A stretch of 64,000 bases of DNA from Candidatus Woesebacteria bacterium (GTDB lineage: Bacteria; Patescibacteriota; Microgenomatia; UBA8517): positions 224,815 to 288,814 of the forward strand of contig CP066693.1 in NCBI GenBank assembly GCA_016432525.1. Direction: 5' to 3'. This document shows, piece by piece, positions 924-36,845 of this stretch. A program made the translations under genes and the position numbers. The notes under the pieces were generated by a model. That model saw only the letters and a list, made by a program, of their open reading frames with translations. It ran no database searches and had not been told where the DNA came from. The first letter of the stretch is position 1. Each line of letters opens with the position of its first letter.

Positions 924-927
924 AATA

Positions 928-1605: not shown

Positions 1606-1607
1606 AT

Positions 1608-2393: not shown

Positions 2394-2396
2394 ATT

Positions 2397-2684: not shown

Positions 2685-2694
2685 TTAAACTTTA

Positions 2695-4004: not shown

Positions 4005-4006
4005 CC

Positions 4007-4687: not shown

Positions 4688-4689
4688 TG

Positions 4690-5553: not shown

Positions 5554-5576
5554 TTTATAATGTAATCATTTCAAGC

Positions 5577-10729: not shown

Positions 10730-11602
10730 ATGGCAATAAAAGCAGTCATTCCAGTTGCAGGTTTTGGAACCCGCTTCCTTCCGCAGACCAAAGCAATGCC
10801 CAAAGAAATGCTTCCAATAGTTGATAAACCAATTATCCAAATCATCGTCGAAGAACTAGTAAAATCCAAAATTAAAGATATTATTTTAGTAACGGGTTGG
10901 CACAAACGCGCTATCGAAGACCATTTTGATACCCATCCCGAGCTTGAAGCTCAGCTTGAAGTGAACGGAAAACACGATCTTCTTGAAGAAATAAGACGTA
11001 TCACATCTCTTGCAAACTTTATTTATGTTCGCCAAAAAGGCCCTTACGGAAACGCAACCCCTATTCTAAATAGCATGCAGGTTACAGATGATGATCCTTT
11101 TATAGTCTGCTGGGGTGACGAATTTATTCTCTCAGATCCTCCCATGGCAACCCAGTTAATTAACGCTCACCAAAAATATGGTGGAATGATTCTAGGAGCA
11201 ATCAGAACTGAAAATCCAAATGATCGAAAAAGATTTGGATTTGCAACAGGGAAAAAAGTAGAAGAAGGAATAATTGAGGTAAAAGAAATTATAGAAAAGC
11301 CAGGAGTGGGGCGTGCTCCTTCAAATCTTGCAACTGTAGCAGGCTTCCTTTTTACTAAAGACATAAAGCCACATTTAGAAAAAGCAGTTAAAGAAATAAA
11401 TGATCGCGAACCAAACTATATAGATGCTTTAAGAAGTGTCATAAAGGGAGGTAAAACAGATGTTTTTGCACTTGAATTCAAAAACTCAAAATATTACGAC
11501 ACAGGAAGTAAACTTGGATATTTAGAAGCAGTTGTTGATTTTGGTCTACAACACAAAGAAATCAAAAACGAATTTGAAAAATTTTTAAAAACCAAAATTT
11601 AA
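10730..11602 (+). CDS. galU: UTP-glucose-1-phosphate uridylyltransferase
   Basis: 290 aa. AVIPVAGFGTRFLPQTKAMPKEMLPIVDKPIIQ is the GalU N-terminal signature. Confidence 0.85.
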   Translation: MAIKAVIPVAGFGTRFLPQTKAMPKEMLPIVDKPIIQIIVEELVKSKIKDIILVTGWHKRAIEDHFDTHPELEAQLEVNGKHDLLEEIRRITSLANFIYVRQKGPYGNATPILNSMQVTDDDPFIVCWGDEFILSDPPMATQLINAHQKYGGMILGAIRTENPNDRKRFGFATGKKVEEGIIEVKEIIEKPGVGRAPSNLATVAGFLFTKDIKPHLEKAVKEINDREPNYIDALRSVIKGGKTDVFALEFKNSKYYDTGSKLGYLEAVVDFGLQHKEIKNEFEKFLKTKI

Positions 11603-13600: not shown

Positions 13601-14172
13601 ATGAGCTTCCTTAAGCCTCTAACACTAACTCTTGTAATCTCTATTTTAATTTTATTTTTAATAAATCTTTTTCAAAACATAAAATCACAATCCTCAAAAC
13701 TAGTTATAGATTCAATACCAAAAACAGAAGTTTTTATTGACGGAAACAGAATCGGGGAAACTCCAGTAAGTGAAATATCCAAAAAAGAGGAAGTTCAAGT
13801 CAAATTAAAAAAAGACGATCTCTCATATGAAAAATACATAACTCTAACAAAGGGAGTTGAAACAATCTTGAAGATTTCTTTAAATCAGGATATTCACAAA
13901 ACCGAAGAACAGATTCTAACTCTTGAAGCCACTGGTGAAAAAAAATCATCTATTTCTCTAACAACAGAGCCAGATGGAGTTCAAATTTATTTAGACGGAA
14001 ATTTGTAGGTGTTAGTCCACAAAAAATTGTAAACATAGAACCATCTATCCATGAAATAACCATGCTAAAAGACGGATTCAATCAAAAAGAGGTTACTATT
14101 AAAACCACCGAAGGCTATACTCTCGATTCTTTCGCTAAACTAGCCAGTAGCGATTCCTCCGTACAAAATTAA
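13601..14172 (+). pseudogene. PEGA-domain secreted protein interrupted by a single-base frameshift in a T-run (~14002-14004)
   Basis: ORF 13601..14008 ends ...GVQIYLDGNL*. The next frame continues (F)VGVSPQKIVNIEPSIHEITMLKDGFNQKEVTIKT to a stop at 14170-14172. Restoring one T gives the PEGA consensus Y.DG.FVG.SP. This is either an authentic frameshift or a homopolymer sequencing error. Confidence 0.5.
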
Positions 14173-15102
14173 AACAACCATTAATATCCAAACAATAACC
14201 GAAGAGACTAAAGCGACATCTTTAAGAAGAAGTTTTTCAGGCGCCTCAGCTCGTCCCTCAAAAATTAAAGCCTCATATCTCATAATGCCAAAAATAGTAA
14301 CAGGAATTGTAATCATTAAAAGTTTTGTTATAGTTGTAGCTTTAGAAATCTCAGCCAAGAAAATCCAAAGTGGAGTAGAAGAGGATGGCGACTCAAAGAA
14401 AGTAAACAAAGCCCAAGCAATCCAAGAAGCACTTCCAAACATAGTGACATAAGAGTTCAAAAGTTCAGGGCTGTATTTTGCCAAAGATTTTCTTGTTTGT
14501 CCGCTTGTTCCCATTACACCAAGCTCAGCCCTTCTTTTTCCTGATGCCAAAAACAGAGCTGTTGATATAACACAAAGTAAAAACCACACTGATAAATGTG
14601 CATCAATTGCAAATGCTCCAGCATAAACTCTAATTACAAATCCCGATGCAATAATTAAAATATCAATTACAGCCAAATTCTTCAAAAACAAAGAATATGC
14701 AACTTGCAACACAAAATAAAAGATTACAAGAATAAAAAATAAATAAGGAAGATGATAAGAAATTTTAAGCGACATCGCGACTAATACGATAAGTTCTATT
14801 ACTGCAAAGGAAATAGGTATTTTTCCAGAGGCGATAGGCCTATTTTTTTTGATTGGGTGAAGTCTGTCTCTTTTTGCATCAATTAAATCATTAAAAATAT
14901 ATGTCGCACTTGTAATGAAATTAAACGCCAAAAATGCCCAAAATACGTAAATAAATCTAGCTCTCCAAAATAATTGTCCTGAAAAAACTAGTGCGGCGAA
15001 AATTGAAAAATTTTTGACCCAATGAATAGGTCTGGCAACAGTAATTAAAGAGTAAAGAGAAAATTTAGTATTTATTTTTTTAACTGTCGGTGTGTTAGCC
15101 AT
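14140..15102 (-). CDS. UbiA-family polyprenyl-phosphate prenyl/phosphoribosyl-transferase (decaprenyl-phosphate phosphoribosyltransferase-like)
   Basis: 320 aa polytopic. YIFNDLIDAKRDRLHPIKKNRPIASGKI carries the NDxxDxxxD plus RP.ASG signature. Confidence 0.7.
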   Translation of the reverse strand: MANTPTVKKINTKFSLYSLITVARPIHWVKNFSIFAALVFSGQLFWRARFIYVFWAFLAFNFITSATYIFNDLIDAKRDRLHPIKKNRPIASGKIPISFAVIELIVLVAMSLKISYHLPYLFFILVIFYFVLQVAYSLFLKNLAVIDILIIASGFVIRVYAGAFAIDAHLSVWFLLCVISTALFLASGKRRAELGVMGTSGQTRKSLAKYSPELLNSYVTMFGSASWIAWALFTFFESPSSSTPLWIFLAEISKATTITKLLMITIPVTIFGIMRYEALIFEGRAEAPEKLLLKDVALVSSVIVWILMVVLILYGGIATG

Positions 15103-16145
15103 AAAATAAGCCCTCCAACAAATATTGCTACTCCGACTATTGTATAGAACTTATTCCGACTGTTCAAATTTAAAGCCACAACCCCAAGTAAAGAAGTTGC
15201 AAACCAATAAAAATAAGCCACTTGTCTTTTACTAAGCCCCGCATCCAGTAGTCTATGGTGCAAATGCCCTCGATCTCCCCAAAAAGGGGATTTTCCACTC
15301 AGTACTCTTCTAATTAATACATATCCCGTGTCAATTAAAGGAATTGCCAAAACAACAGCCAAAACTCCAACTTTCGTGGTAGATATTATCGATAAAATTG
15401 CAAGTATATATGCTCCCAAGTTAGATCCTCCGAATGAGGGCATTATTTTTTGAGGATAAATATGATATGGCAGAAAACCTAAAAATGCGCCAGCTAAAAT
15501 TACTGCAAGTATCAAAACAACAAGCTGGCTCGGGTCATTTATAAATTTTAAAGACAAAAAAGCAATGGTAAGAGCCGAAATAACCATCACTCCAGATAGT
15601 TGTCCATCAACTCCTTTAGCTCCAAAATTAACTGCGTTCATCATATAAACTATCCAGAAAATTGCAAACAAAGAAGACAAAATCCATATTGAATGCATTC
15701 CATAAAAATCAAAAATAATTTTAGGATTTGATAAATCTATTATTTTTCCATTTATTGGGTTGGTCACAAAAGAAATTCCAATCCCTGCTAAAACAGGAAA
15801 AAGCGCAGCTACAAACTGCAGCCCTAATCTAAGATAGGGGCTCAAATCATATTTATCATCCAAAAGCCCTACGATAGTTATAAGTATTGCTCCCAGAAGA
15901 ATTCCCAAAATGTGTTTATCAATTGGCAAAAACAAAAAAACAGAAATCAAAATTGCCAAAAATACTGCAAGTCCACCTCCTCGGGGGACAGGGTAAGTGT
16001 GTATTACTTTAATATGTTTATGCTTTTTAGGATCATCGATAATATTCAATCTCCAGGCAAGTTTAATTACTAAGGGAGTTATTAAATAAGAAAAAATTGA
16101 AGCAAAAACTAAAGGGGCTAAAAAAATTCTTATAAAAAGATCCAT
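15072..16145 (-). CDS. MraY/WecA-family polyprenyl-phosphate N-acetylhexosamine-1-phosphate transferase (GT4 family)
   Basis: 357 aa polytopic. VPRGGGLA, GLLDDKYDL (DDxxD) and G..D.Q match the family. Confidence 0.8.
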   Translation of the reverse strand: MDLFIRIFLAPLVFASIFSYLITPLVIKLAWRLNIIDDPKKHKHIKVIHTYPVPRGGGLAVFLAILISVFLFLPIDKHILGILLGAILITIVGLLDDKYDLSPYLRLGLQFVAALFPVLAGIGISFVTNPINGKIIDLSNPKIIFDFYGMHSIWILSSLFAIFWIVYMMNAVNFGAKGVDGQLSGVMVISALTIAFLSLKFINDPSQLVVLILAVILAGAFLGFLPYHIYPQKIMPSFGGSNLGAYILAILSIISTTKVGVLAVVLAIPLIDTGYVLIRRVLSGKSPFWGDRGHLHHRLLDAGLSKRQVAYFYWFATSLLGVVALNLNSRNKFYTIVGVAIFVGGLILWLTHRQLKK

Positions 16146-16477
16146 TAAAGTTTTGCTATTAAAAAAAATATTCTTAAAATCGTAATTACAGAAAGAAGAG
16201 TTAAAACTATAGAAGTGCCTTTAAATATTTTCCCTAAAAACTTGTTACTTAGTTTTTTGTCTGCAAAAAAATTGAAAGCCACAAACACAATTGAAACAAT
16301 CAAAGGCATAATTAAATAATTACTCTTCGCAAGTTGTTGCTCTCCAATTGCTCTCCCATACAAGAGTGGCACTTCAGGAGGAAGGTTATTCCTAAAAATA
16401 AACAAAAATACCAAAACAATGAAATTCACCAAAAATAAAGTCCCAAAAAACCAATCTCTTTTTATGTCGAAAATCAT
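16145..16477 (-). CDS. Small membrane protein (hypothetical)
   Basis: 110 aa with three TM helices. Shares its start/stop nucleotide with the downstream gene. Confidence 0.4.
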   Translation of the reverse strand: MIFDIKRDWFFGTLFLVNFIVLVFLFIFRNNLPPEVPLLYGRAIGEQQLAKSNYLIMPLIVSIVFVAFNFFADKKLSNKFLGKIFKGTSIVLTLLSVITILRIFFLIAKL

Positions 16478-16511
16478 GCCTTATTTTACCATTTCTATTG
16501 GCATTATCACC

Positions 16512-17984
16512 CTAAAGCTTCGTATTTAATCTCCAAATATTTGCCCCATCTAATTGGAGAACATTGAAGTAATTTCTAGCCAAAAAACTATAAAGTTCAG
16601 GGAAGTTATCAGAATTAGGCAAAACAACAATATACGCAGGTTTATTCTTATTAAGAGCCGATATCACGTCTCCATGTGTTGTAAAGTCATTAATATGATA
16701 TGGTGCAACATATTTTAATGGTGGAAGTCTTCTTGAAAGAGCATAAATTGGCGGAGAATCACCCCAAACAAAAACTTTAGTCCCGGGCATTGTAGTTTTT
16801 GACAAAAAATCAGAAACCATATAGTTTCTGATTACGTTTCCATCAAACTCGGAAAAATACTGCTGCTTAGTTATTCTTCCTGTCGCAAAGCTTAAAAATC
16901 TATTGTAATACGAAATAGTATTATAGTGATAATACTTATAATAAACAGGAACCAGAAGAGCCAAGAAAAGTGGAATTATGGCAAAACTTTGCTCAATATT
17001 TTCATACCCTATTAAAATTGCAACAAGAATTGATGCTGGTGCCGCAACCTGTAATAAATAATGAGGATATGGCCTTTCAGATAAAGTAGCAGCAAAAAGT
17101 GAAGTCAAAAGCCAAACTGTTCCCAAAATAAAAGGAAGGCTCAATTTCTTTCTTTTTATAAAAAGGATTATTGTTCCAATTAAAACAATTGCTCCTCTTC
17201 CTAAAAGTGGTGCATTTCGAACCAAGAATGGTTTTTGTATATCTCCAGGCCTAAACGAAGAAAGATAACCCACATTTTCCAGATATGCAGCTTTAATATA
17301 ATCAAATAAAGCCCCTTTGGTATAATACCAGACAAAAAAGAAAATTATTGGAACCAAAAATGCAACAGAAATAATTAAAGTTTTTCTAATAATGTCTTTT
17401 TTATTTTTCTCAGTTATAAAAAAGTACAAAATTAAGGCTGGTAAATCAAAAGCCGCAGGGATTTTAAAAAGAGCAGCCAAAGAGAATAGTATTCCAGCTA
17501 CAATCAAAGCCCAATTCTTTTTATATCTTAGTGCAATAAAAAATCCTAAGATAATAAACCCAATCAAAAAATTCTCTGCATTAACAATATTTCCCTCCAA
17601 AAGAGGAAGAGTAGTGATAATTGCAAAAAATGTTGTCGCAGCTTTTTGAAGTTTTTCTTTTTTAGGAAACATCATCAAAGTTAGCTTCCAAAATGCATAA
17701 ACAGTCACCAAACTCCAAAAAAGCAAGATTGCTTTAAAAGATACTAAACTTCCAGAAAAACCTGCCAGATAATACAAAAGAGGCGGCTTGTTGTCGTGGA
17801 TATCCTTGTAAAGTGTCAATCCTTGCCTTACCCCTGTGCCCAGCGTCATATAAATCATCTCATCTCCATAGGAGTAAGGCTCAAAAAGTGAAGGGATTCT
17901 AAAAATGACCACGAATGCCAAAACCAAAACTACCCAAGCCGGAGCATGAATTTTCTGTAAAAATTTATTCATTTTGTAAACCAA
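16512..17984 (-). CDS. GT-C fold glycosyltransferase, ArnT/PMT-like (GT39/GT83)
   Basis: 490 aa polytopic. N-terminal PYSYGDEMIYMTLG...KPPLLYYL matches the DE..Y and KPPL.YW hallmarks of ArnT/PMT-like enzymes. Confidence 0.65.
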   Translation of the reverse strand: MVYKMNKFLQKIHAPAWVVLVLAFVVIFRIPSLFEPYSYGDEMIYMTLGTGVRQGLTLYKDIHDNKPPLLYYLAGFSGSLVSFKAILLFWSLVTVYAFWKLTLMMFPKKEKLQKAATTFFAIITTLPLLEGNIVNAENFLIGFIILGFFIALRYKKNWALIVAGILFSLAALFKIPAAFDLPALILYFFITEKNKKDIIRKTLIISVAFLVPIIFFFVWYYTKGALFDYIKAAYLENVGYLSSFRPGDIQKPFLVRNAPLLGRGAIVLIGTIILFIKRKKLSLPFILGTVWLLTSLFAATLSERPYPHYLLQVAAPASILVAILIGYENIEQSFAIIPLFLALLVPVYYKYYHYNTISYYNRFLSFATGRITKQQYFSEFDGNVIRNYMVSDFLSKTTMPGTKVFVWGDSPPIYALSRRLPPLKYVAPYHINDFTTHGDVISALNKNKPAYIVVLPNSDNFPELYSFLARNYFNVLQLDGANIWRLNTKL

Positions 17985-19291
17985 ATAAGCTTAAGATCAC
18001 CAAAATTTTTTACTTCACTTTCATTGTAACCAGGTAATTTAACTTCTTCAACAGGTCCTGAAGTAATTACTCCAATTCTGATGTATCTCTTTTTAGGTAA
18101 TTGATTCACGATATCAACTTTCTCCATTAAAGCAGTCCCAACAAAATAGGGAAGAGCGCCTCCCGGATTATAAATAGGAGCAGGTATTCCATAATATTTA
18201 GACTCCCACAAGTGGTGTGCAGTACCATTCCAGTTAATTAAATAATCATCGCCATGTTTAACTTCTTTAACATAGTCTGAAAATTCTCGAAATGGTAATT
18301 TAGTGGGGTGCGTAAAGTAATTAAAATCAATAACCAAAAACATAGCAATTATAGCTCCCAATAAAATTATATGAATCTTTCGGGTATTTGAGCTCAAAAG
18401 TATCATCGACGCAGGAATGGAGTATAAAAGATATCTATTATAAAAAATTGAACTAAATTTCTGAGAAATTCCAAATGCTAAAAGTATTGGAATCAAAAAC
18501 CAGCTTAATACAAATAAACTTTGTTTTAAATTCTGCCTCCATTTTCTTAAAACTAGTCCTAAAATCACTAAAATCAAGGCATAATCCGAAAGTTTATTAG
18601 AAATTCCAGTAGCTAAATAATCATAAATTAACCGCCTTAAATCAAGAAGCGTCGGTCTTCCAAGCCAAAATCCACTTCCTACCATTTTTGTTTGTGCATA
18701 TAAAAATGGAAGCCAGGGAAGATATAAAATCCCAACAGCTATAAAAGACAAAAACATTTGTCTAATTAGTTTTCTCTTCTTAATCTTGGCCGCCCCATGT
18801 GCAGGTTTAATAAGTTCATACAAAAACCAAAATCCCTGAACAAATAAAGCAAAAAAGGCAAAATGATGGCTGTATAAAGCAAAAAGTGTCGCAACAATAT
18901 AAGCTTTCCAATTTCTCCTCAAAAAAAAGTACATTGAAGCAACAACTCCCAAAGCTAGAATAGAATACATCCTGCCTTCAAAGGCATAGATAAAAAAGAA
19001 AGGATTAAAAAAGCTAAACAAAGCTGCTAGAATTCCTGTTTTTTTGCCCCACAAAAAAGAGGCGATTTTATAAACAAAAAAGATAGCGATACAGTAATAA
19101 AAAAAAGATAATCCTCTGATTACAATCTCAGAAGTCCCAAACAATTGAAATGCAATATGCTCAGTAATGTTATATAAAGGTGGGGAAGTGTCATGGGAAA
19201 TAATTTTTAAAATATCTGGAAGGCTTTTCATCGACAAAATCGCCGAAAAAGCCTCATCTCCCCAGATACTAACATTAAACTGATTGAGCAT
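17969..19291 (-). CDS. GT-C fold glycosyltransferase, ArnT/PMT-like (second paralog)
   Basis: 440 aa polytopic with N-terminal WGDEAFSAILS...SPPLYN. Confidence 0.55.
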   Translation of the reverse strand: MLNQFNVSIWGDEAFSAILSMKSLPDILKIISHDTSPPLYNITEHIAFQLFGTSEIVIRGLSFFYYCIAIFFVYKIASFLWGKKTGILAALFSFFNPFFFIYAFEGRMYSILALGVVASMYFFLRRNWKAYIVATLFALYSHHFAFFALFVQGFWFLYELIKPAHGAAKIKKRKLIRQMFLSFIAVGILYLPWLPFLYAQTKMVGSGFWLGRPTLLDLRRLIYDYLATGISNKLSDYALILVILGLVLRKWRQNLKQSLFVLSWFLIPILLAFGISQKFSSIFYNRYLLYSIPASMILLSSNTRKIHIILLGAIIAMFLVIDFNYFTHPTKLPFREFSDYVKEVKHGDDYLINWNGTAHHLWESKYYGIPAPIYNPGGALPYFVGTALMEKVDIVNQLPKKRYIRIGVITSGPVEEVKLPGYNESEVKNFGDLKLIWFTK

Positions 19292-19310
19292 TAACTAAAG
19301 TGTAGCAAAT

Positions 19311-20801
19311 TTATACTTTCTCCGTCACCTTATACTCCATATACTTTCCAAGCATAAGCCTGGTGTGAGCATCCAATCCCGGAAGTGCTCCAAAAATAAA
19401 TCCGGTAATAGGCATTAAGATAAATTCAAATGGAACTAACAAGGCTCTCCAAAGTGGGAAAGTTGCAGGCCTTTTTGGTTTATAAAAATAATCAATTACA
19501 AACATAATAAGTAGAAACACAAGTCCAACAGTCAAAACAAAAGATGAAAGTTTTGGAACAGTGTACCCCAAAGTTGTTCTTCCAAATGCAGGATTCAAAA
19601 GCGTTGGAAGTGTAAGCCCCACAGTAATCAAAAACCAGTTTACAGGCCACAAAAAATGAGATTTTATAACATTCATAAGTCTCATTGTTTTATCAATCAA
19701 AGGTACTTTATCCACTAAAAAATAATTTTTAATAATCCATGGGACATCTGATACTCCCCAAGCCCATCTCTTAAATTGATCATATTGATTTTTCAAAGTC
19801 TTTATAAGTGTTGGCGATTTTGGAGCATCAGCATAAAGTGGAATATATAAAGGCTCAACTTCAACATTTCCTCCTCTTTTAAAATATGCCTTAAAAAATA
19901 TTCCCCAGTCTTCAGGAATTTTGTCAGGATCCCAGTATCCTGCATCATCCAAAAGCTTCAAAGATAAAGAATAATTTTGTCCGTTAATTAATTTATCTTT
20001 GCGCGAAAGCTGAGATAAATTCCAGATAGATCCAAATGTATTAGGAACTCGCGTGAGTGCTGGCACTTCCCAAATATTATTATAAAACAAAACAGCAGGT
20101 TGCCAAAAATGACTAAACCTATCTGGGTTATCCAAAAACTTAAATGTCAAAACTGAAAAATGCTTTGGGTGAAAAGTATGATCCGCATCCGAGCTTGTAA
20201 CTGTAATATAATTGATATCTTTTTTCATCTCTTTTACTAACTTATTTTTAACCCAAATTGCAGCATATCGCTCATTTGAAGATTTGCCAGCGATTTCACC
20301 GCTTGTTAATGTGTGTTCAGTAAAAAACAAATTCCCAAATTTCTTCCCAAATTTTTCTTTTAAGACTTTCATCTTTAAGGATCTATCCGTCTCATCCTCT
20401 TTTTTCTCCATCGCAACAACCGGAACAATTTGTTTTAAAGGAAAATCCTGTTTAGCGATAGAGTTTAAAGTTCGCTCTATTATATACAAAGGCTCCTTGT
20501 AAGTTGGAATAATAATTACATGAGTGACTTTTTTGTAATCAGGGAAATTTTTAATGTCAGTTAACCAATCATAAGCAATAGTTGCCTGAATTCTAAAATG
20601 GGAAATAATTGCAGCTGTCGCAAGTTCAAATGATTGATAAAACCAATAAATATTAAATAGAAGTATAAAATAGGCAACAAAAGTAGGAATAAAAAATACT
20701 CCCCAATAGGGGAGAAGAATAATATTCCAAGAAACTAGTCCTGGAATTATCTCCAAGATCCGAGTTATCAGTTTTTCATGAGCTCTGATAAATTTTGTCA
20801 T
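19311..20801 (-). CDS. Membrane-embedded family 2 glycosyltransferase (processive/synthase-like)
   Basis: 496 aa. TM helices flank a GT2 domain with VIIIPTYKEP, SSDADH, and the Q..RW motif (QYDQFKRWAWG). Confidence 0.7.
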   Translation of the reverse strand: MTKFIRAHEKLITRILEIIPGLVSWNIILLPYWGVFFIPTFVAYFILLFNIYWFYQSFELATAAIISHFRIQATIAYDWLTDIKNFPDYKKVTHVIIIPTYKEPLYIIERTLNSIAKQDFPLKQIVPVVAMEKKEDETDRSLKMKVLKEKFGKKFGNLFFTEHTLTSGEIAGKSSNERYAAIWVKNKLVKEMKKDINYITVTSSDADHTFHPKHFSVLTFKFLDNPDRFSHFWQPAVLFYNNIWEVPALTRVPNTFGSIWNLSQLSRKDKLINGQNYSLSLKLLDDAGYWDPDKIPEDWGIFFKAYFKRGGNVEVEPLYIPLYADAPKSPTLIKTLKNQYDQFKRWAWGVSDVPWIIKNYFLVDKVPLIDKTMRLMNVIKSHFLWPVNWFLITVGLTLPTLLNPAFGRTTLGYTVPKLSSFVLTVGLVFLLIMFVIDYFYKPKRPATFPLWRALLVPFEFILMPITGFIFGALPGLDAHTRLMLGKYMEYKVTEKV

Positions 20802-20810: not shown

Positions 20811-22232
20811 TTAACTAATTCGGGGAAATAGCGGTTCACCACTTTTAATTTTTCCTGAGAATTGTTTTTGGATTTTTGCTGTGGTTTCAGGCAAAAATGG
20901 TTCTAAATAGACACCTATTTGCTGTAAACCTTCGACAACATCTAAAAGTATATTGATTTTATTGTTTGTGTCTCTCCAGAGTTCGTTTTCGCTAACCAAA
21001 CCATCTAATTTTTTAATTTTTTCCCAGATATCACCCAAGGCAAAATCAAAGCGGAATTCTTCTATATGCTTTTTGAGGTCAGTTGGAATTTGTATCGAAT
21101 AAAAGTATGATTCAAGATTCGCTATTTCTGCAAGTCTTGCAACCCTGGAAACCAAATTTCCAAGCCCATTTGCTAAATCTGCATTATAAGTTTCCTTAAA
21201 TTTTTCTTCAGAAAAATCTCCATCATTAAAAGGTGAAAATTTAGCCAAAACATAATATCTTAAAGCATCAGCTCCGTATTTATTAATAATCTCGACTGGG
21301 TCAATTACATTTCCCAAAGTTTTACTCATCTTAGCTCCATTAACAGTAAAATAATCATGAACAAATAAAGCTTTTGGAAGATCTAATTTTGCAGAAAGTA
21401 AAAATGCCGGGAAGTATACAGCATGGAAGCGAATTATTCCTTTTCCAATTACATGAAGATCAGCTGGCCACCATTTTTTATATTTTTTCTCATCCCATCC
21501 AAATCCAACTCCTGATTGGTAAATATTTAACGCATCAAACCAGACATAAATTCGCTGCGAACTATCTCCCGGAACTGGTACACCCCAATTTTTTGCGCGT
21601 TCATTGGTCCTTGAAATACTAATATCCTTTAATGGCTCTTTCAAAAAAGACAAAACCTCGTTTTTTCTTTTTTCTGGAAATATTTTAAGCTTATCCGTTG
21701 AAATCAAATCAATTAACTGTTTTTGGTATTTAGAAAGCTTAAAAAAATAATTTTCTTCAGATATCTCTTCAAGTTTTCGTCCTGGATGTTCAAAGCATTC
21801 ACCGTTTTCATTAAGCTCTGATTTCTCATAAAACTGCTCACACCCAACACAATAAAGTCCTGTGTAAGTTTCTTTGTAAATATCGCCCGACTTACCGCAA
21901 AGTTCCCAAAGTTTCTGAGAAGAGGAAAAATGATGAGATGAATCTGATCCTTTCTGCCAAACGTTATAATCACAATTTAATTTCTCAGTTAACTCCAAAA
22001 ACAATTTATTATTTTTGTCAACAAATTCTTGAACAGGCACTTTTTCTTTTTCAGCTGCTTGAACATTCTTTAAAGCATTTTCATCTCCTCCAGATAAAAG
22101 AAGAACTTCCTCTCCAAGAAGTTTATGATATCTGGCAATTGTATCTGCCTGTACAAACTCCAAAGCATGTCCAATGTGAGGCTTTGCGTTCACGTAAGGA
22201 ATAGCAGATGTAATATAAAACTTTTTTCTCAT
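20811..22232 (-). CDS. metG: Methionyl-tRNA synthetase (short form)
   Basis: 473 aa. ITSAIPYVNAKPHIGHA is the HIGH motif, and KMSKTLGN is the KMSKS motif. Confidence 0.85.
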   Translation of the reverse strand: MRKKFYITSAIPYVNAKPHIGHALEFVQADTIARYHKLLGEEVLLLSGGDENALKNVQAAEKEKVPVQEFVDKNNKLFLELTEKLNCDYNVWQKGSDSSHHFSSSQKLWELCGKSGDIYKETYTGLYCVGCEQFYEKSELNENGECFEHPGRKLEEISEENYFFKLSKYQKQLIDLISTDKLKIFPEKRKNEVLSFLKEPLKDISISRTNERAKNWGVPVPGDSSQRIYVWFDALNIYQSGVGFGWDEKKYKKWWPADLHVIGKGIIRFHAVYFPAFLLSAKLDLPKALFVHDYFTVNGAKMSKTLGNVIDPVEIINKYGADALRYYVLAKFSPFNDGDFSEEKFKETYNADLANGLGNLVSRVARLAEIANLESYFYSIQIPTDLKKHIEEFRFDFALGDIWEKIKKLDGLVSENELWRDTNNKINILLDVVEGLQQIGVYLEPFLPETTAKIQKQFSGKIKSGEPLFPRIS

Positions 22233-22312: not shown

Positions 22313-23224
22313 CTAATCCTGTTTAAGTTTTTTAACATCCAAGGATGGCTGTTCATCACTAGTATCTGACTCATCCTCCTCGTAAACTTCCACCGCTTTA
22401 GATTTAAACTTATCACGATTATAAGCAATGTGAAGGATTTTAGATATCCATAGGTTACTATTATTAGGCGTTGACCAGTCAGTTTCATGCTGTATCAAAA
22501 TTTCAACGAAATCATTTGTCTCTAAATAGAGAGAGATATTTCTTACCTGTTCAAATTGTCCCTTCGGAGCAAATTCGTCTAGATATCTCAATAACTCCTC
22601 AGAGTTTCCATCGTAAAGATCCAAAATATCCTTTGTTACAATTACGAGATGAATCTTTTCATTGGAAAGTAGAGATAAGGCTAAAACCGAAAGCTCTCGG
22701 GTAAGATATCTATCCCGAAAATAACCAAAACATCTTTCTTGATTAATCCATGACAAGCTGATTTGTTCATCTCCAGAAAGTTTTGCAATCAAGTCTCGGC
22801 CCCAGCGAGCAGTATATTCAATTGAAACGCTTCGTTCCTGATACGAAATTACAAAAAAATCTCCGTTCTGACGTACGTCTTTTACCTCAGGTCTTCCTTC
22901 TCCTTTAGGTACAAATCTGGATAAAATCTTTTCGGGAAAATATCCTGATTCAATATATTTTTTTACCAAATCAGGATCAATGTAAAGATAATGCAGGCTT
23001 CCCGAATCATCACTCATAGTAGTAACGTCAATGGCTACTACATCAGTTTTTTCTCTTAATGCCAAATCTTTAAGGCAATATGTAATTTCTCCCAGTCCAC
23101 GCCAAAACCCAAAAAACATAAAAGGTGACGATATATTTTTGTTAGGTTCTCTTAATCTCTTTTCCTCAAAACGCTCAAGAAACGATATAATCTTCTCCAA
23201 AAATTGAATCAACTTCCTAATCAT
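22313..23224 (-). CDS. Hypothetical cytoplasmic protein with acidic C-terminal tail
   Basis: 303 aa with no recognisable motif; ends EEDESDTSDEQPSLD. Confidence 0.45.
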   Translation of the reverse strand: MIRKLIQFLEKIISFLERFEEKRLREPNKNISSPFMFFGFWRGLGEITYCLKDLALREKTDVVAIDVTTMSDDSGSLHYLYIDPDLVKKYIESGYFPEKILSRFVPKGEGRPEVKDVRQNGDFFVISYQERSVSIEYTARWGRDLIAKLSGDEQISLSWINQERCFGYFRDRYLTRELSVLALSLLSNEKIHLVIVTKDILDLYDGNSEELLRYLDEFAPKGQFEQVRNISLYLETNDFVEILIQHETDWSTPNNSNLWISKILHIAYNRDKFKSKAVEVYEEDESDTSDEQPSLDVKKLKQD

Positions 23225-30452: not shown

Positions 30453-32276
30453 TTAATCAAACTCCCATCTTTTTTGTCTTACATAATTTGCGTTTGATTT
30501 CAAAAGTTTTTCTGGAATGTCAATAACAAACCTGCTCACTGGATTTGAAATATTTTGCCCAAAATAAAGCCGCCTCTCGGCATAAGTCATATATAAAAGC
30601 TCTTTAGCTCTCGTAATCCCAACATAGGCAAGTCTTCTTTCTTCCTCAATTTCACTCGCTTCCATCAAAGATCTTGAATGAGGAAAAATCCCTTCTTCCA
30701 TTCCAACCATGAATACAACAGGAAACTCAAGGCCTTTTGCAGCATGAAGTGTCATAAGTGTGACATTATCTTCTTTCCCTTGCTCTTTCGAAGCCTTGGC
30801 GAATAAGGGTTCTGCTTCAACCAAAGCTACATTTTCCAAAAATTCATAGATTTTGGGAAATTCAATTGCAACCGACCTAAATTCTTTTATATTTTCAAGC
30901 TTTTGAAAATTTTCCTCAGTTTCTCGTTTATATTTTGATAAATAATCAGTCTCTTTTATAACCAAATCAAAAAGACCTAAAGTAGTATATTTCGCAATTT
31001 CCAAATTCTCTTGTAATTTTTTAAATTTTTCAAATCTTTTTACTCCCAATTTCTGAATTCTTTTTAAAGAAACACTATCTTTTGGATTAACTAAAACTCT
31101 CAAATACGACAAAATATCTTTAATTTCAGCCCTTTCATAAAATCTAACCCCTCCAACTAAAACATAAGGAATGCCAGAGTGGAGTAGTGCCTCTTCAATA
31201 ACTCTTGATTGTGCATTTGTCCTATATAAAATCGCAAAATCATTAAACTTAAATCCTAAGTCAAGAAGTAGTTTAATCTCAGAAACAATAAAGGAAGCCT
31301 CATCCATCCCGTTCCTAGCCCCATAAATATTAATTTTATCTCCCTCACTTTTTTCAGTCCACAAGGATAATATAGGGTGGGTTTTGTTATGCATAATTAC
31401 AGCATTGGCTGCTAAAAGTATATTCTTAGTTGACCGGTAATTTTGCTCCAAATTAACTATTTTTATATCAGGATAGTTCGAAATTAAATTATTAATATTT
31501 CTAAAATCAGCACCTCGCCATGAGTAAATTGACTGTGAAGCATCTCCAACTGCAGTTAGCGAATTATTTTTACCAACTAAAAGTTTTGTCAGTTGATACT
31601 GAATTTTATTAGTATCCTGCCATTCATCAACTAAAATATGAGAGAATTTGTTTTGCCATTTTCCTAGAACTTCAGGATTTTCTTTTAGAATATTGTAAGT
31701 TTTTATCAAAAGATCATCAAAATCCAGTGCTCCAATTTCTTTCAATTTCTTCTCGTATAAATTATAAATTTTAAATAAAGTCTCCTGAAAATCCCCTTGA
31801 ACTATTTCTGCGTATTGAAGTGGAGTTAGCATCTGATTCTTCAAATCTCCCAATTGATTTTGAATCAAACCCATTTGATATGATTCCTCAGGCAGATCAA
31901 GATCATCAATAATTTCTTTAATTAAACTTTTCTGATCAGAGTCATCATAAATAATGAAATTAGGCAAAATTCCTATAATTTGGCCTTCAATTCTCAAAAA
32001 CTTCACACAAAACGAGTGATATGTAGAAGCCAACGGAGGATCGTTTCCAATAAGTTTATAAATTCGTTCTTTCATTTCGTTTGCCGCTTTATTTGTAAAA
32101 GTCAAAAGAAGAATTTTGTGAGGATTTATATTTTTATTCAAAATAAAATACGCAGCTCTATATACCAATACTCGTGTTTTTCCAGATCCAGCTCCAGCCA
32201 AAACCAACAAAAATTGGCTCTCGTTCATAACAGCCTCTTTTTGTTGAGCGTTCAATTGGTCTAAAATAAGTGTCAC
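30453..32276 (-). CDS. UvrD/PcrA/Rep-type ATP-dependent DNA helicase
   Basis: 607 aa. LNAQQKEAV, AGAGSGKT, VDEWQDTN, LEQNYRST, MTLHAAKGLEFPVV, YVGITRAK. Confidence 0.85.
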   Translation of the reverse strand: MTLILDQLNAQQKEAVMNESQFLLVLAGAGSGKTRVLVYRAAYFILNKNINPHKILLLTFTNKAANEMKERIYKLIGNDPPLASTYHSFCVKFLRIEGQIIGILPNFIIYDDSDQKSLIKEIIDDLDLPEESYQMGLIQNQLGDLKNQMLTPLQYAEIVQGDFQETLFKIYNLYEKKLKEIGALDFDDLLIKTYNILKENPEVLGKWQNKFSHILVDEWQDTNKIQYQLTKLLVGKNNSLTAVGDASQSIYSWRGADFRNINNLISNYPDIKIVNLEQNYRSTKNILLAANAVIMHNKTHPILSLWTEKSEGDKINIYGARNGMDEASFIVSEIKLLLDLGFKFNDFAILYRTNAQSRVIEEALLHSGIPYVLVGGVRFYERAEIKDILSYLRVLVNPKDSVSLKRIQKLGVKRFEKFKKLQENLEIAKYTTLGLFDLVIKETDYLSKYKRETEENFQKLENIKEFRSVAIEFPKIYEFLENVALVEAEPLFAKASKEQGKEDNVTLMTLHAAKGLEFPVVFMVGMEEGIFPHSRSLMEASEIEEERRLAYVGITRAKELLYMTYAERRLYFGQNISNPVSRFVIDIPEKLLKSNANYVRQKRWEFD

Positions 32277-33352
32277 AAGCTATTCTAATGCAAAAGCTAA
32301 CAAAAAATAAAATTCTATTCCTTAAAATTAAAAGAAAAGCTTTAAAACATCTCTGGTTGGCTAGGTTTTTTCTATTGGCAATAATTTTTGTGATAATCTC
32401 AACTCCTGTTATATTTTTTGTATCCTGGTTTAATAATTCGCTAATAAAAAATTTCACCAATCTCGCCGAAGATTTTTTGTTTGCACCTCAATATAAACTT
32501 TCGAACACAGATGGAAGAGTAAATATTCTAGTTTTGGGAAAAGGTGGCATAGGTCACGACGCACCAGATCTGACAGATACAATGATTCTTGTTTCGGTTT
32601 CTCTAAAATCTCCAAAAATAGTTTCAATTTCAATTCCAAGAGATATTTGGGTGTCCGCTCTTCGAGCAAAAATAAATAGCGCATATTATTGGGGAAATCA
32701 AAAAGAAAATCAAGGCCTAACATTAGCCAAAGCAACCGTTGAAAATATAGTTTCAGTTCCAATTCATTACGCTGTAGTGATAGATTTTGGCGGTTTTACA
32801 AAAGTAATAGACACAATAGGGGGGGTTGACGTAAATATTAAATATTCTTTTACAGATAATCAATTTCCAATTGCAGGTAAAGAAGATGATACTTGTAATG
32901 GAGATTTAACTTATAAATGCAGATATGAAACAATCCATTTTGATCAAGGTATAACCCACATGGACGGGGAAACTGCTCTAAAATTTGTCCGATCTCGTCA
33001 TGCAGTTGGAGATCAAGGAACAGATTTTGCTCGTGATGAAAGACAGCAAGAGGTTATCTTGGCTATAAAAACCAAGATTCTATCCAAAGAAGTTTTGTTC
33101 TCGCCTCAAAAAGTTATAGATTTATTAAATTTAAGTAAAAACTATATTCAAACAGACATTAAAACAGAATCTATAGCTGTTTTAGCGCGATATGTCTTAA
33201 ACGGCAAAACCAATATCAAGACATTTGTTTTTCCTCAAGAATTTTTAATAAATCCTCCAATCTCTTCGACATACGATAATCAATATGTTTTTATTCCCAA
33301 TGGAGGAAACTGGTCAAAAGTTCAAGAATGGATAAAATCAATTCTTCCATAA
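32270..33352 (+). CDS. LytR-CpsA-Psr (LCP) family cell-envelope polymer transferase
   Basis: N-terminal TM helix. GRVNILVLGKGG...DLTDTMILVS...ISIPRDIWV and the RSRH...D.R motif. The true start is probably the ATG at 32288, which avoids overlapping the divergent helicase start. Confidence 0.8.
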   Translation: MSQAILMQKLTKNKILFLKIKRKALKHLWLARFFLLAIIFVIISTPVIFFVSWFNNSLIKNFTNLAEDFLFAPQYKLSNTDGRVNILVLGKGGIGHDAPDLTDTMILVSVSLKSPKIVSISIPRDIWVSALRAKINSAYYWGNQKENQGLTLAKATVENIVSVPIHYAVVIDFGGFTKVIDTIGGVDVNIKYSFTDNQFPIAGKEDDTCNGDLTYKCRYETIHFDQGITHMDGETALKFVRSRHAVGDQGTDFARDERQQEVILAIKTKILSKEVLFSPQKVIDLLNLSKNYIQTDIKTESIAVLARYVLNGKTNIKTFVFPQEFLINPPISSTYDNQYVFIPNGGNWSKVQEWIKSILP

Positions 33353-33355: not shown

Positions 33356-34558
33356 TTAAAACTCCACCCATCCAAATTTATTAATCCAAATTACTCCCCA
33401 TAAATTAACAATCACTCCAATCAAAAGCAAAATCCAGTGATATTTTTTAAGTCCTGTCCTTGCAACTCCTTTTATGGTTAAAAATGTTAAAAACGGATAT
33501 AAATCAACAGCAAATCTGTATCCAAATTGAGCCCAACCAGTTCCTCCATGCATAAAAACAATGAATAAAATCGCAAACGAAGTAATACTTGCAATTTTAA
33601 CAACATTTTCTTTAATGTTTGCCATTAAACTAAAGACAAAAGCAGGAGTAGTAATCCATATAGAAAGTCCCCACCAGGATGGTTCTATAAAAGGTGTCCT
33701 ATCTAAAATTTTAGGAAACGACCAAAAAGCAGCTTTGATATTTGATGGAATATAATAAAAGCTCATTACTCCGTGCATAAACCAAGGCGTTTGTGTTTCA
33801 TGTAAAACTCGAGGAAGCAAAAAATAAGCCTTATCCCAAAATACTCCGAAACGAATAAAATTATAAAATGAGTCAAGACCAAAACTCAAAACTAAAGGTA
33901 AAAAAAATAAAATTATATTTTTAAAATTTCTTAAATCACGATTTAATAAAAATATAAAAAAGGGGAGAGAGATAATTGTATGTACTCTTGAAAGATATGA
34001 AATTCCAATACATAAAGAGACAAACCAAACTGATTTTTTGTATAAAGCTGCCCAGATAGCTACAAATAAAAAAAAGGCAGCTGTTATTTGTCCCAAATAC
34101 CAGCTTGATCCAACAGATCCCATATACCAAAGAATTGATCCTAAAGAGATTAAAATTGAGCTCCAAATTGCAATGCGCAAATCTCGCTTAATCTTTAAAG
34201 ATATGTAAAAAGTTAAAATTGGTATTGCTGCAGTCAAAATATGAGCTAAAATTTGTTGCTGAAAAGAGATACCAAAAACTAAAATAAATGGAATTAATAC
34301 TAAAGAAGGCCCAGGAGAATAGGGAACAAAAAATTTTCCACTTTTCCCTGGTATTAACTCAGAAAGCCATGGCGGATTTTCAGTTAAATAATATTTTCCA
34401 TGGATAAAAGCGTTTGTTAGTCGGGTAAAATAATCATAAGGTGTAGCGCCGGAAGAAGACAAAAAATAAACCATGAAAAAAAACAAAAAGGCCAGAACTA
34501 TTTTCATAGTACTTGTTCTCGGCTTTATTTTGAGAATTTTATTATTTAATTTTGGCAC
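33356..34558 (-). CDS. Polytopic membrane protein, possible GT-C-like glycosyltransferase or polymerase (hypothetical)
   Basis: 400 aa with more than ten TM helices. No catalytic motif identified with confidence. Confidence 0.4.
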   Translation of the reverse strand: MPKLNNKILKIKPRTSTMKIVLAFLFFFMVYFLSSSGATPYDYFTRLTNAFIHGKYYLTENPPWLSELIPGKSGKFFVPYSPGPSLVLIPFILVFGISFQQQILAHILTAAIPILTFYISLKIKRDLRIAIWSSILISLGSILWYMGSVGSSWYLGQITAAFFLFVAIWAALYKKSVWFVSLCIGISYLSRVHTIISLPFFIFLLNRDLRNFKNIILFFLPLVLSFGLDSFYNFIRFGVFWDKAYFLLPRVLHETQTPWFMHGVMSFYYIPSNIKAAFWSFPKILDRTPFIEPSWWGLSIWITTPAFVFSLMANIKENVVKIASITSFAILFIVFMHGGTGWAQFGYRFAVDLYPFLTFLTIKGVARTGLKKYHWILLLIGVIVNLWGVIWINKFGWVEF

Positions 34559-36845
34559 TTTAGATCTTGATTATCATACATTTTTGGCCTGGAGCAACAT
34601 ATTAGTTCATAACGGTTTTAATAATTTTTATAACGGTTGGTCTGATTATCTTCCTGGCTATTTATATATTTTATATTTTTTAGGAAAAATAAAAACCATC
34701 GTTCCTTTACCAGAACTTTTTATTTACAAACTACCAGCAATTTTGGCAGATTTGGCAACTGGATTTCTAATTTATAAAATTGTCAAAAAACTAAAATCAG
34801 AAAAACTAGCCCTAATATCTTCAATTTTATATATCGCAAACCCCGCAATTATTGCAAATTCAACTCTTTGGGGACAAGTTGATTCTTTAACAACTCTATT
34901 TACTCTCGCATCTATTAGTTTATTTCCACAAAATTGGCTTGCATCAAGCCTTATTTTAAGTGTCGTAGCAAGCATTAAACCTCAGGGAGCATTAGCAGCA
35001 CCAATTATTTTATTTATGATGATAAAAAGAAAATGGAGCCTAAAAAGTATATCAATCTATATCATAATTTCATTAATTTTCTTTATCTTGTTATTCGTAC
35101 CTTTTAATAATACAAATAATCTAATAGGCTTTATAATTAACCGCTTAAATGTAACTACCGGACAATATTCATACACTAGTATAAATGCATTTAATTTTTG
35201 GGGACTTTTTGGATTTTGGCAACAAGACAGCCTCGTAAAGGCGGGGATAGGATACAGTTTGATATTCTTTTTCTACATCATTTTTGCAGTAAAATTATGG
35301 GATAAAAAGGGAAGTGAATACATTCTGACTTCTATAATTTTCACGACAAGTTTCTTATTTTTCACGAGAATGCACGAAAGACATTTACTTCCAGCTCTTG
35401 CGCCATTATTAATAACAGCATCAATTTATCCGGCAACCTTTATCACTTACTGCTTACTCTCCCTAGGATACATCGCTAATTTATATTACTCATTTGTGTG
35501 GATAACTCAGTCTTTCAAATCAATCTTTTCAGATCTTATTATAAAAGCGTTTACAATCGTCAATCTGTCGTCATTAATTTTTATAATTAAACCAATTTTT
35601 TTTCAAAATAAAACTGAATTTAAAAAAGATCTCCCCGACCCTCTCCCCTCTTTAAAATTAAATAAAAATCAATCAAAAAAATTTTTATTTCTGATACTCC
35701 TATTTGCATTCCTAACCAGAACTATTTCGCTCTCAAATCCAACTCATGAATATTTTGATGAAGTTTATCACGCATTTACAGCCAGAAGGCTCATTCATGG
35801 CGATATTAAAGTCTGGGAATGGTGGAACCCCTCCCCCGAAGGCTTTGCTTATGAATGGACCCACCCCCCAGTTGCAAAACTTGTGATGTGGACAGGGATG
35901 AAGATTCTTGGTGAAAACTCCTTTGGCTGGAGATTTCCGGCAGCAGTAGTCGGAACCTTAACAGTTTACTTAGTTTACAAACTAACTTTTGAAATATTTA
36001 AAGATGAGGCATTAGGGCTACTTGCTGCAGCTACATTCGCTCTCGAAGGTCTTCCTCTTGTTTTATCAAGAATCGGAATGAATGATATTTATTTTTTATT
36101 TTTCACTCTTCTTTCTCTTTTCTTGTTTATTAAAGATAAAAATTTTCTTTCAAGTGTAAGCCTCGGTTTAGCAGCAGCTTCCAAATGGAGTACATTATGG
36201 GCAATACCTATTTTATTTGTAGCCTTTTTCGTTCTCAAAAAAAAGCTAAAAGTAAGCCATATTTTCTTTTTTATAATTCCACTAATTGTTTATTTGGCAA
36301 CTTACATACCCATGTTTACATCAGGCCACACTCTCGACACATTTATTGGAATGCAAAAACAAATGTGGTGGTATCATACAAATCTTAAAGCAACTCACCC
36401 ATACACTTCTCTTTGGTACACTTGGCCATTTTTAATTCGCCCAATTTGGCTTTATACCAGTGGTGAAATAGGAGGATATATTTCAAATATTTACGCTCAG
36501 GGAAATCCAGTAGTTTTTTGGTTTGGAGTTATTTCAATTGCTACAACAATTTTCTATACTATCAAAACTAAAAGTAAAAAATTAGGATTTATCGTTTTCA
36601 GCTATCTTGTGTTTTTTGTTCCTTGGGCAGCATCCCCTCGTATTATGTTCCTTTACCACTATCTCCCCTCAATTCCATTTATGTGTATGGCAATAGCCTA
36701 TGTATTAAGAAAAAATCCCAAATATATTCCTATATTTTTTACTTTTGCCCTTATTGTATTTATTTATTTATACCCACACTTTACAGGTATAAAAGTTCCA
36801 GTTTGGCTCGATAATTCCTATTATTGGTTTGACAGTTGGAAGTAA
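34473..36845 (+). CDS. Large GT-C fold glycosyltransferase with PMT-like domain (two membrane modules)
   Basis: 790 aa polytopic. The second module carries HEYFDEVYHAFTA...WTHPP, like protein O-mannosyltransferase (PMT/GT39) proteins. The first module is ArnT-like. Confidence 0.6.
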   Translation: MKKNKKARTIFIVLVLGFILRILLFNFGTLDLDYHTFLAWSNILVHNGFNNFYNGWSDYLPGYLYILYFLGKIKTIVPLPELFIYKLPAILADLATGFLIYKIVKKLKSEKLALISSILYIANPAIIANSTLWGQVDSLTTLFTLASISLFPQNWLASSLILSVVASIKPQGALAAPIILFMMIKRKWSLKSISIYIIISLIFFILLFVPFNNTNNLIGFIINRLNVTTGQYSYTSINAFNFWGLFGFWQQDSLVKAGIGYSLIFFFYIIFAVKLWDKKGSEYILTSIIFTTSFLFFTRMHERHLLPALAPLLITASIYPATFITYCLLSLGYIANLYYSFVWITQSFKSIFSDLIIKAFTIVNLSSLIFIIKPIFFQNKTEFKKDLPDPLPSLKLNKNQSKKFLFLILLFAFLTRTISLSNPTHEYFDEVYHAFTARRLIHGDIKVWEWWNPSPEGFAYEWTHPPVAKLVMWTGMKILGENSFGWRFPAAVVGTLTVYLVYKLTFEIFKDEALGLLAAATFALEGLPLVLSRIGMNDIYFLFFTLLSLFLFIKDKNFLSSVSLGLAAASKWSTLWAIPILFVAFFVLKKKLKVSHIFFFIIPLIVYLATYIPMFTSGHTLDTFIGMQKQMWWYHTNLKATHPYTSLWYTWPFLIRPIWLYTSGEIGGYISNIYAQGNPVVFWFGVISIATTIFYTIKTKSKKLGFIVFSYLVFFVPWAASPRIMFLYHYLPSIPFMCMAIAYVLRKNPKYIPIFFTFALIVFIYLYPHFTGIKVPVWLDNSYYWFDSWK

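Follow-up and report, generated by a model that had tools for sequence, protein, structure and literature searches.

Lipid-linked pentofuranoses serve as donors for GT-C fold glycosyltransferases (GT-Cs) in mycobacteria, Pseudomonas aeruginosa and Citrobacter youngae. In mycobacteria, the decaprenyl-phosphoryl-arabinose (DPA) pathway that feeds arabinogalactan synthesis begins with Rv3806c, a UbiA-superfamily decaprenyl-phosphate phosphoribosyltransferase (DPPRS) that uses phosphoribosyl pyrophosphate (PRPP), and further includes DprE1/DprE2, the PAP2 phosphatase Rv3807c and the GtrA protein Rv3789; Rv3806c and DprE1 are tuberculosis drug targets. In P. aeruginosa, TfpW transfers D-arabinofuranose onto pilin, in a system that has a polyprenyl-phosphate 5-phosphoribosyltransferase (PPPRS) of the PsPA7_6246 type and homologues of DprE1/E2. 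Kelly et al. (PNAS 2024) described polyprenyl-phosphate-linked ribofuranose used directly as a GT-C donor, with no epimerase (PMC11127046). In that system, from C. youngae O1/O2, ORF15 is the PPPRS, ORF14 a MATE flippase and ORF12 the GT-C that founded family GT136 (PMC11127046). Here, we describe a putative relative of these pathways, a gene cluster found in a 64-kb stretch of DNA (the window) from the genome of a Candidatus Woesebacteria bacterium of the Patescibacteria, or candidate phyla radiation (CPR) (contig of 916,571 bp; G+C about 34%). The Patescibacteria form a very large radiation, for the most part uncultured, of small bacteria that depend on hosts and whose envelopes are chemically little understood.

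The cluster comprises six co-directional genes on the minus strand (14140-20801) with metG directly upstream, making seven genes head to tail (Table 1). From metG downward the spacings are +9, +19, -16, +34, -1 and -31 nt, with all gaps at or below 46 nt, and the last value is a 31-nt overlap between the GT4 gene, which encodes a WecA-like polyprenyl-phosphate phosphosugar transferase (PNPT), and the UbiA-family gene. A first-pass annotation of this DNA had described a UbiA-family enzyme, a WecA/MraY-family transferase, two GT-Cs and a membrane glycosyltransferase of family 2 (GT2) in one co-directional block; all five are present on the minus strand, but the sixth gene, for a 110-aa protein with three predicted transmembrane (TM) helices, had been overlooked. 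The arrangement is not a chance one, since it is repeated in other genomes. We propose, with about an even chance of being right, that this operon assembles or decorates an envelope glycan on polyprenyl-phosphate carriers with a PRPP-derived ribofuranose donor and is not an arabinan pathway.

The UbiA homologue carries the motifs NDLIDAKRD at residues 71-79 and RPIASG at residues 88-93, in agreement with the NDxxDxxxD/RP.ASG signature first reported for it. Its one Pfam assignment is to the generic UbiA family (E 7e-23), which leaves room for an aromatic or quinone/heme prenyltransferase with no connection to the adjacent glycosyltransferases. We consider such an identity extremely improbable and, as far as sequence goes, refuted by the NCBIfam comparison, the PDB search and the tree. 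The protein scores 216.7 bits against the NCBIfam equivalog NF008978, above the cut-off of 207, and stays below the cut-offs of two sister models (NF008977, 214.2 against 234 bits; NF008976, 149.4 against 474 bits); PRK08238, a UbiA model of 482 positions, aligns at positions 187-412 only (164.6 bits, cut-off 351). Models for quinone, heme, chlorophyll and archaeal-lipid prenyltransferases reach at most 47 bits. Two Rv3806c entries were the only matches among all PDB sequences (8j8j, E 5.6e-33), although structures of further UbiA-superfamily members exist. Identity to Rv3806c is 34%, against 16-18% to the E. coli proteins UbiA, MenA and CyoE, and the corresponding phmmer scores are 116.9 bits against at most 15.3. 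Phylogeny had been named beforehand as the check to make, and in a neighbor-joining tree containing Rv3806c and the same E. coli UbiA, MenA and CyoE proteins the homologue lies inside the Rv3806c clade, away from the quinone enzymes. A protein 100% identical to it, from a Woesebacteria assembly, carries the NCBI name decaprenyl-phosphate phosphoribosyltransferase, and that assembly also has an entry identical at 100% to the 490-aa GT-C.

The residues that bind PRPP are also kept. The cryo-EM study of Rv3806c assigned contacts with the pyrophosphate of PRPP to R22, K87, R90, K143 and Y138, with Mg2+ to N73 and D77, with the ribose to Q135 and with the 5-phosphate to K28, Y70 and Y157, and noted that the phosphoribose-binding sites are not conserved across the wider UbiA superfamily (PMC10994848). 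In a HMMER alignment these positions correspond, in the same order, to R24, K85, R88, K141 and Y136, to N71 and D75, to Q133, and to K30, Y68 and F155 of the Woesebacteria protein. Ten of the eleven are thus identical, and the eleventh is a Tyr to Phe change at a position, Tyr157, that is also Phe in some mycobacterial species (PMC10994848). Seven of them (R24, K30, Y68, N71, D75, K85 and R88) are invariant in both a 39-sequence and an 11-sequence alignment of the family; in the closer, 11-sequence alignment Y136 is invariant as well, and K141 and F155 are at least 90% conserved. By sequence, then, the UbiA homologue is a member of the DPPRS/PPPRS (Rv3806c) family and not a quinone prenyltransferase.

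The donor had initially been left as a polyprenyl-phosphate-linked ribose or hexose. The conserved PRPP-binding residues make a hexose unlikely, and ribofuranose is favored over arabinofuranose because no epimerase was found. Pfam and NCBIfam scans over essentially all open reading frames (ORFs) of at least 100 aa in the window detected neither a DprE1-type FAD oxidase (FAD_binding_4/ALO) nor DprE2, in line with the first reading of the locus, and no PRPP synthase. Nor did a DprE1/DprE2 pair appear among ten recurrent neighbor families scanned in 80 related loci, where families unrelated to the pathway were GroEL/ES, M23 peptidase, PEGA/SH3, solute-binding, bacterial PH-domain, GAPDH and short-chain dehydrogenase/reductase (SDR) proteins. 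The UbiA homologue itself, at 320 aa, consists of the UbiA domain only, without a fused HAD/PRP phosphatase domain, and four longer DPPRS homologues checked for fusions (P0161, P0183, P0202 and P0269) had no additional Pfam domain.

Table 1. Genes of the cluster and other features of the window discussed in the text.
Feature	Coordinates	Strand	Basis and remarks
metG, methionyl-tRNA synthetase	20811..22232	-	Pfam tRNA-synt_1g, TIGR00398; first gene of the run, neighbor outside glycan function
Putative membrane-integrated GT2 synthase (hyaluronan/cellulose-synthase-like), 496 aa	19311..20801	-	Glyco_trans_2_3, E 3e-9
Second GT-C glycosyltransferase, 440 aa	17969..19291	-	PMT_2, 30.2 bits against a cut-off of 26.1
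GT-C fold glycosyltransferase, 490 aa	16512..17984	-	AlphaFold2 model and Foldseek; NCBI start 17972, 486 aa
Conserved small membrane protein, 110 aa, 3 predicted TM helices	16145..16477	-	Family alignment
Predicted WecA/TagO-like polyprenyl-phosphate phosphosugar transferase (PNPT, Pfam GT4), 357 aa	15072..16145	-	Glycos_transf_4, E 2e-21
Predicted polyprenyl-phosphate 5-phosphoribosyltransferase (UbiA superfamily, DPPRS/PPPRS clade), 320 aa	14140..15102	-	Pfam UbiA, E 7e-23
LCP (LytR-CpsA-Psr) glycopolymer-peptidoglycan ligase, unlinked, possible last step	32270..33352	+	TIGR00350, 98.6 bits against a cut-off of 62.3; Pfam LytR_cpsA_psr
PMT-family GT-C, 790 aa, possible extra consumer of the lipid-linked donor	34473..36845	+	PMT, PMT_2 and PMT_4TMC in residues 408-789

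The tightest partner of the UbiA gene encodes a protein that matches Glycos_transf_4 at 77.1 bits (cut-off 27) and falls under both relevant equivalog cut-offs (wecA, 91.7 against 326 bits; mraY, 41 against 192 bits). It is predicted to be a PNPT nearer WecA than MraY and an equivalog of neither. Across 77 homologues, conservation is at least 95% at residues D96, D97, D180, D272, H294, H296 and H297, which include the catalytic D96-D97, D272 and HxHH. The GT2 protein retains the motifs D, D205xD207, E297-D298 and Q342xxR345W346 (QxxRW(A)xG), with D205xD207, D298 and Q342xxR345W346 at least 95% conserved in 63 homologues, and has two N-terminal helices and about four C-terminal ones. Its top Foldseek matches are the hyaluronan synthases of Chlorella virus and Xenopus, PcManGT and BcsA. 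By motifs, helix layout and modeled fold it resembles membrane enzymes of the hyaluronan/cellulose/chitin-synthase class, with which it shares the D, DxD, ED and QxxRW motifs, but its Foldseek alignments with solved synthases reach no more than 18% identity, and 10-16% with the synthases proper.

The two GT-Cs are related to each other only remotely (hhalign E 8e-4). The 490-aa protein scores 22.6 bits against PMT_2, under the cut-off of 26.1, and its AlphaFold2 model is confident (predicted local distance difference test, pLDDT, 90.2; predicted TM-score, pTM, 0.89). The best Foldseek matches of this model were all GT-C enzymes (AglB, STT3, PglB, Pmt4, ALG6/9, AftB and ArnT), with ArnT on top by TM-score (0.56/0.51) and weaker matches to AftB and Emb than to ArnT and oligosaccharyltransferases. 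The motif Y39-G40-D41-E42 after TM1 is invariant among homologues, and the protein bears a small C-terminal alpha/beta domain. The 440-aa protein begins right at its own motif, W10-G11-D12-E13, invariant in 13 homologues, and lacks the canonical TM1 that normally precedes the GT-C catalytic loop; the same is true of 13/13 homologues. The first-pass annotation had allowed that these might be true protein O-mannosyltransferases (PMTs) with a Dol-P-Man synthase nearby. The Pfam and NCBIfam scans rule this out, as both proteins match PMT_2 only, and weakly, neither is a true PMT (PF02366), and no Ppm1-, DPM- or GtrB-type polyprenyl-phosphate-hexose/mannose synthase was recognized in the window.

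The overlooked 3-TM protein belongs to a family placed between a GT-C or GT2 gene and the GT4 gene in about 60 loci, with the loop motif LPPxxPLFYSLPWGxxQL. It had no match in Pfam or the PDB and is not a GtrA, SMR or EamA protein; the GtrA model matched none of 55 members of the family. The second loop is rich in lysine, which under the positive-inside rule suggests that the conserved loop faces outward. By its position the protein may be a candidate, and a positional one only, for flipping the lipid-linked pentose. At a related locus, L090 (8001-9258), the gene after that of a distant DPPRS homologue encodes a small membrane protein (115 aa) of the EamA/TMEM234 type, a hint that in other settings the enzyme has small transporters alongside it; we take the EamA/TMEM234 type to be the family of the ArnE/ArnF lipid-sugar flippases.

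Taken together, these proteins could form the following pathway, which parallels the three-component pentofuranose systems known from Gram-negative O antigens (PMC11127046) and the donor branch of arabinan synthesis in mycobacteria. At the cytoplasmic face, the UbiA-family enzyme would transfer 5-phosphoribose from PRPP onto polyprenyl phosphate, as its strong homology to Rv3806c indicates, giving polyprenyl-phosphate-ribofuranose-5-phosphate. The 5-phosphate would then be removed by an enzyme encoded elsewhere or be retained. The lipid-linked pentose would be flipped to the outer leaflet, where the GT-C enzymes, judging from their fold and gene linkage, would move ribofuranose onto an acceptor outside the membrane. 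That acceptor would be a glycopolymer. The WecA-like transferase could prime it on polyprenyl phosphate, the QxxRW GT2 could make it, or both could take part, and the GT2 may supply its backbone. An LCP ligase 11 kb from the cluster could fix the glycopolymer to peptidoglycan; the tightly coupled PNPT and this ligase together suggest a peptidoglycan-attached polymer, WecA-primed like arabinogalactan. The origin of the acceptor and its attachment are the least certain steps.

The DPPRS-like family comprises 1,559 clusters at 50% identity (E < 1e-30). Using the 11-sequence alignment to find related loci, we obtained at least 591 GTDB species genomes matching the search patterns and analyzed the best 80. 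Most are labeled Woesebacteria, Daviesbacteria, Collierbacteria, Amesbacteria, Levybacteria, Curtissbacteria, Gottesmanbacteria, Beckwithbacteria, Shapirobacteria, WWE3 or "Patescibacteria group", and about 25 bear titles such as "uncultured Gammaproteobacteria" or "Pseudomonadales", which we take to be mislabeled. Linkage was counted in those loci, from the best 80 plus three others, that have enough flanking DNA. In these 80 species genomes the order GT2-(GT-C)-3TM-GT4-UbiA recurs across the Microgenomates and WWE3. The GT4 gene immediately precedes the UbiA gene in 71/81 loci and within 2.6 kb of it in 76/81, a GT2 gene is in the cluster in 51/60 loci and the 490-aa GT-C in 50/76. The 440-aa GT-C is found in the cluster in 10/60 loci, including metagenome-assembled genomes labeled Woesebacteria and Curtissbacteria, and loci of the Daviesbacteria type show the order GT2-3TM-GT4-UbiA and lack a clustered GT-C. 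In different lineages the UbiA gene has one of three unrelated GT-C types beside it (490-aa, 440-aa or PMT-type); the PMT type is represented in seven other Patescibacteria loci, directly downstream of the UbiA gene, by homologues of the PMT half of the 790-aa protein in Table 1. The invariant core is therefore GT2, 3-TM protein, GT4 and UbiA, and three GT-C families have been separately recruited beside it. Within the Woesebacteria, identities of about 65% for UbiA, 70% for GT2 and 55% for the 490-aa GT-C are high for this group and suggest a housekeeping role.

Some related loci carry further genes within this arrangement. In five Woesebacteria loci (L008, L012, L014, L016 and L018), an SDR gene of 313-315 aa on the opposite strand, with Pfam matches to GDP_Man_Dehyd/Epimerase, sits between the GT2 and GT-C genes; the cluster in our window has none. 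From its sequence the product looks like a UDP-glucuronate decarboxylase or a GalE-type nucleotide-sugar enzyme, or, by analogy with Citrobacter ORF13, it could be a lipid-pentose epimerase. At L014 (4414-5418), from one Microgenomates relative, an ORF inserted in the cluster region reads as a group II intron or retron-type reverse transcriptase. Loci of WWE3 have a 222-aa gene between GT4 and UbiA, considered as a phosphatase and dropped when its sequence read as an OmpR-type response regulator, and a gene of about 270 aa between metG and GT2 in other classes, considered as DprE2-like or as a phosphatase, was dropped because its motifs read as a TatD-type hydrolase.

Of the described systems, that of Citrobacter is like the Woesebacteria cluster in several respects. 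A UbiA-family PPPRS gene adjoins GT-C genes in both, neither has DprE1/E2, so that ribofuranose itself is the predicted transferred sugar, and in both a GT-C is ArnT-like, ORF12 by sequence according to its authors and the 490-aa Woesebacteria protein by fold. They differ in that the Woesebacteria UbiA protein has no HAD/PRP phosphatase domain, an unrelated 3-TM protein is found instead of a MATE flippase, and closely linked genes for a PNPT and a QxxRW GT2 synthase are part of the cluster. The Citrobacter system is, moreover, a serotype-determining modification of O-antigen side chains, whereas the Woesebacteria cluster is kept across whole Patescibacteria classes.

Resemblance to the DPA-arabinan logic of mycobacteria, suggested by the first-pass annotation, extends to the parts list. 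The first enzyme is homologous to Rv3806c with the PRPP site kept, and further parts of the mycobacterial pathway have counterparts as well: the PNPT WecA as primer enzyme, a GT2 (GlfT1/2), GT-Cs that work outside the cytoplasm on a lipid donor derived from PRPP (the Aft/Emb enzymes), and the LCP-family ligase Lcp1. The resemblance ends with DprE1/E2, the Rv3807c-type PAP2 phosphatase and the Rv3789-type GtrA protein, which are absent from the window, with the predicted sugar, ribose instead of arabinose, and with the GT2, a predicted membrane-integrated QxxRW synthase unlike mycobacterial GlfT2, which is a peripheral enzyme. The pilin D-arabinofuranosylation system of P. aeruginosa is a further case of a PPPRS with a GT-C outside the Actinobacteria, and type IV pili are prominent in the Woesebacteria lineage; in this comparison, the Woesebacteria cluster lacks epimerase genes and a consistent linkage to pilins and has a PNPT and a GT2.

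The pathway logic is thus already published for Citrobacter, Pseudomonas and mycobacteria and is new for this lineage. The earlier description of an undescribed envelope glycan stands in that narrower sense; in general it does not, as an epimerase-free ribofuranose donor has been reported (PMC11127046) and the enzyme already has an NCBI name. Literature searches on this enzyme family in Patescibacteria returned nothing relevant. What is new here is the lineage-wide conservation, the obligatory company of a PNPT and of a GT2 of the synthase type, the 3-TM family, and a cluster with no recognizable phosphatase, flippase or epimerase. The cluster gives a testable chemical prediction, a PRPP-derived ribofuranose delivered on a polyprenyl carrier, for a surface structure that may matter in host attachment, and it flags a conserved family of 3-TM proteins. 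It would also extend the pentofuranose GT-C pathway from variable O-antigen decoration to an apparent housekeeping envelope function. For a pathway with drug targets in tuberculosis, a DprE-independent relative would show which parts are ancestral.

Several observations weigh against the ribofuranose pathway that we propose. Neither the cluster nor the window encodes a PAP2 or HAD/PRP phosphatase or a recognized flippase (GtrA, MATE or EamA), the sole MOP-superfamily protein in the window being MurJ (40527-42176). The 490-aa GT-C is missing from the cluster in 26/76 loci, and none of the three GT-C types is nearby in 19/60, so that the invariant partners are the GT4, the 3-TM protein and the GT2 and not the GT-C. 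Donor specificity of the GT-Cs is not legible from sequence, and the model of the GT2 is confident in its GT-A core only and poor in the membrane part (mean pLDDT 66). Lastly, synteny of the cluster with metG is kept in relatives, and the order metG-tatD-GT2...UbiA forms a unit conserved from class to class; because the surroundings of metG are widely kept in these small genomes, some of the linkage may reflect inherited gene order and not a common function.

In an alternative that we regard as unlikely, the conserved order joins separate pathways, with the GT-Cs using a polyprenyl-phosphate-hexose made by another GT2 and the phosphoribosyl-lipid having some other fate, for instance as a glycolipid of the membrane or as an intermediate on which the GT4 protein acts. 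The block conserved with metG and tatD, the many loci whose cluster has no GT-C, and the overlap of the UbiA gene with GT4 and not with a GT-C would all fit. Such a separation is hard to reconcile with three unrelated GT-C families each standing beside the UbiA gene in different lineages, which is difficult to explain without a functional link, and no polyprenyl-phosphate-hexose synthase of the GtrB, Ppm1 or DPM type was recognized in the window. Somewhat less probable still is a role in protein glycosylation, in which the GT-Cs would modify type IV pilins or further surface proteins with a pentofuranose or a different sugar. A P. aeruginosa PPPRS orthologue has been cited as the donor source for pilin O-glycosylation (Kelly et al., PMC11127046), genes for T2SSE, T2SSF and N_methyl pilin proteins lie just beyond the cluster in one relative (L005 and L006), PilN and its neighbors are at 37-40 kb of the window, and oligosaccharyltransferases and PMTs are among the top fold matches. 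Pilus genes are not consistently adjacent, however, and are 23 kb away in the window; the AglB, PglB and STT3 chains that the GT-Cs match (about 700-860 aa) have a large C-terminal domain that is missing from the GT-Cs, and the WecA-like primer enzyme and the LCP ligase fit a wall polymer better.

A true DPA-like pathway, with DprE1/DprE2 encoded elsewhere in the genome of about 0.9 Mb and polyprenyl-phosphate-arabinofuranose as the donor, seems very unlikely to us. The PNPT, GT2, GT-C, DPPRS and LCP proteins do match the arabinogalactan parts list, and the scan covered 64 kb of the contig, but DprE1/E2-like genes are absent from the window and from the ten neighbor families scanned in the 80 loci, and in known systems the epimerase genes accompany the PPPRS gene (PMC11127046). 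A bolder idea, which we also consider a long shot, starts from the quartet of GT2, 3-TM protein, PNPT and phosphoribosyltransferase, which would build a core wall polymer defining the Microgenomates and WWE3. Because no phosphatase is encoded, the 5-phosphate would be kept, and an anionic phosphoribosyl glycan resembling teichoic acid would be deposited by a new route, either by a GT-C or by the PNPT using this phosphate, with the 3-TM protein as a new type of translocator for lipid-linked sugars or as a GT-C partner.

Elsewhere in the window, two adjacent minus-strand genes of the FemAB family (28631-29503 and 29484-30413), taken with the LCP ligase and MurJ, suggest that the wall is Gram-positive-like, has interpeptide bridges and carries a secondary polymer. 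The N-terminal part of the 790-aa PMT-family protein, about 400 aa with some five hydrophobic segments, has no family match. A second sugar region at 3-7078 on the minus strand contains a CapD/PseB-like dehydratase fragment running off the start of the window (3-944), ORFs without a family, an RmlD-like reductase (4690-5553) and a 260-aa GT2 (6296-7078); the dehydratase fragment and the reductase are the SDRs of the window. GalU is encoded closer to the cluster, at 10730-11602. An Rfam scan gave tRNA-Cys as its sole match, and two ORFs for soluble proteins, of 303 aa (22313-23224, minus strand) and 400 aa (33356-34558, minus strand), matched neither Pfam nor NCBIfam. The former lies directly upstream of metG, where relatives have Trp-repressor-like or HAD genes (a HAD gene in L001). 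Convergent with the UbiA gene is a plus-strand PEGA-domain gene (13601-14170) that appears frameshifted: its ORF stops at 14006-14008, and a second PEGA-like repeat (GVSPQKIVNIEPSIHEITMLKDGF...) runs on in another frame to about 14170. Relatives encode PEGA+SH3_3 proteins of 271-287 aa at this position.

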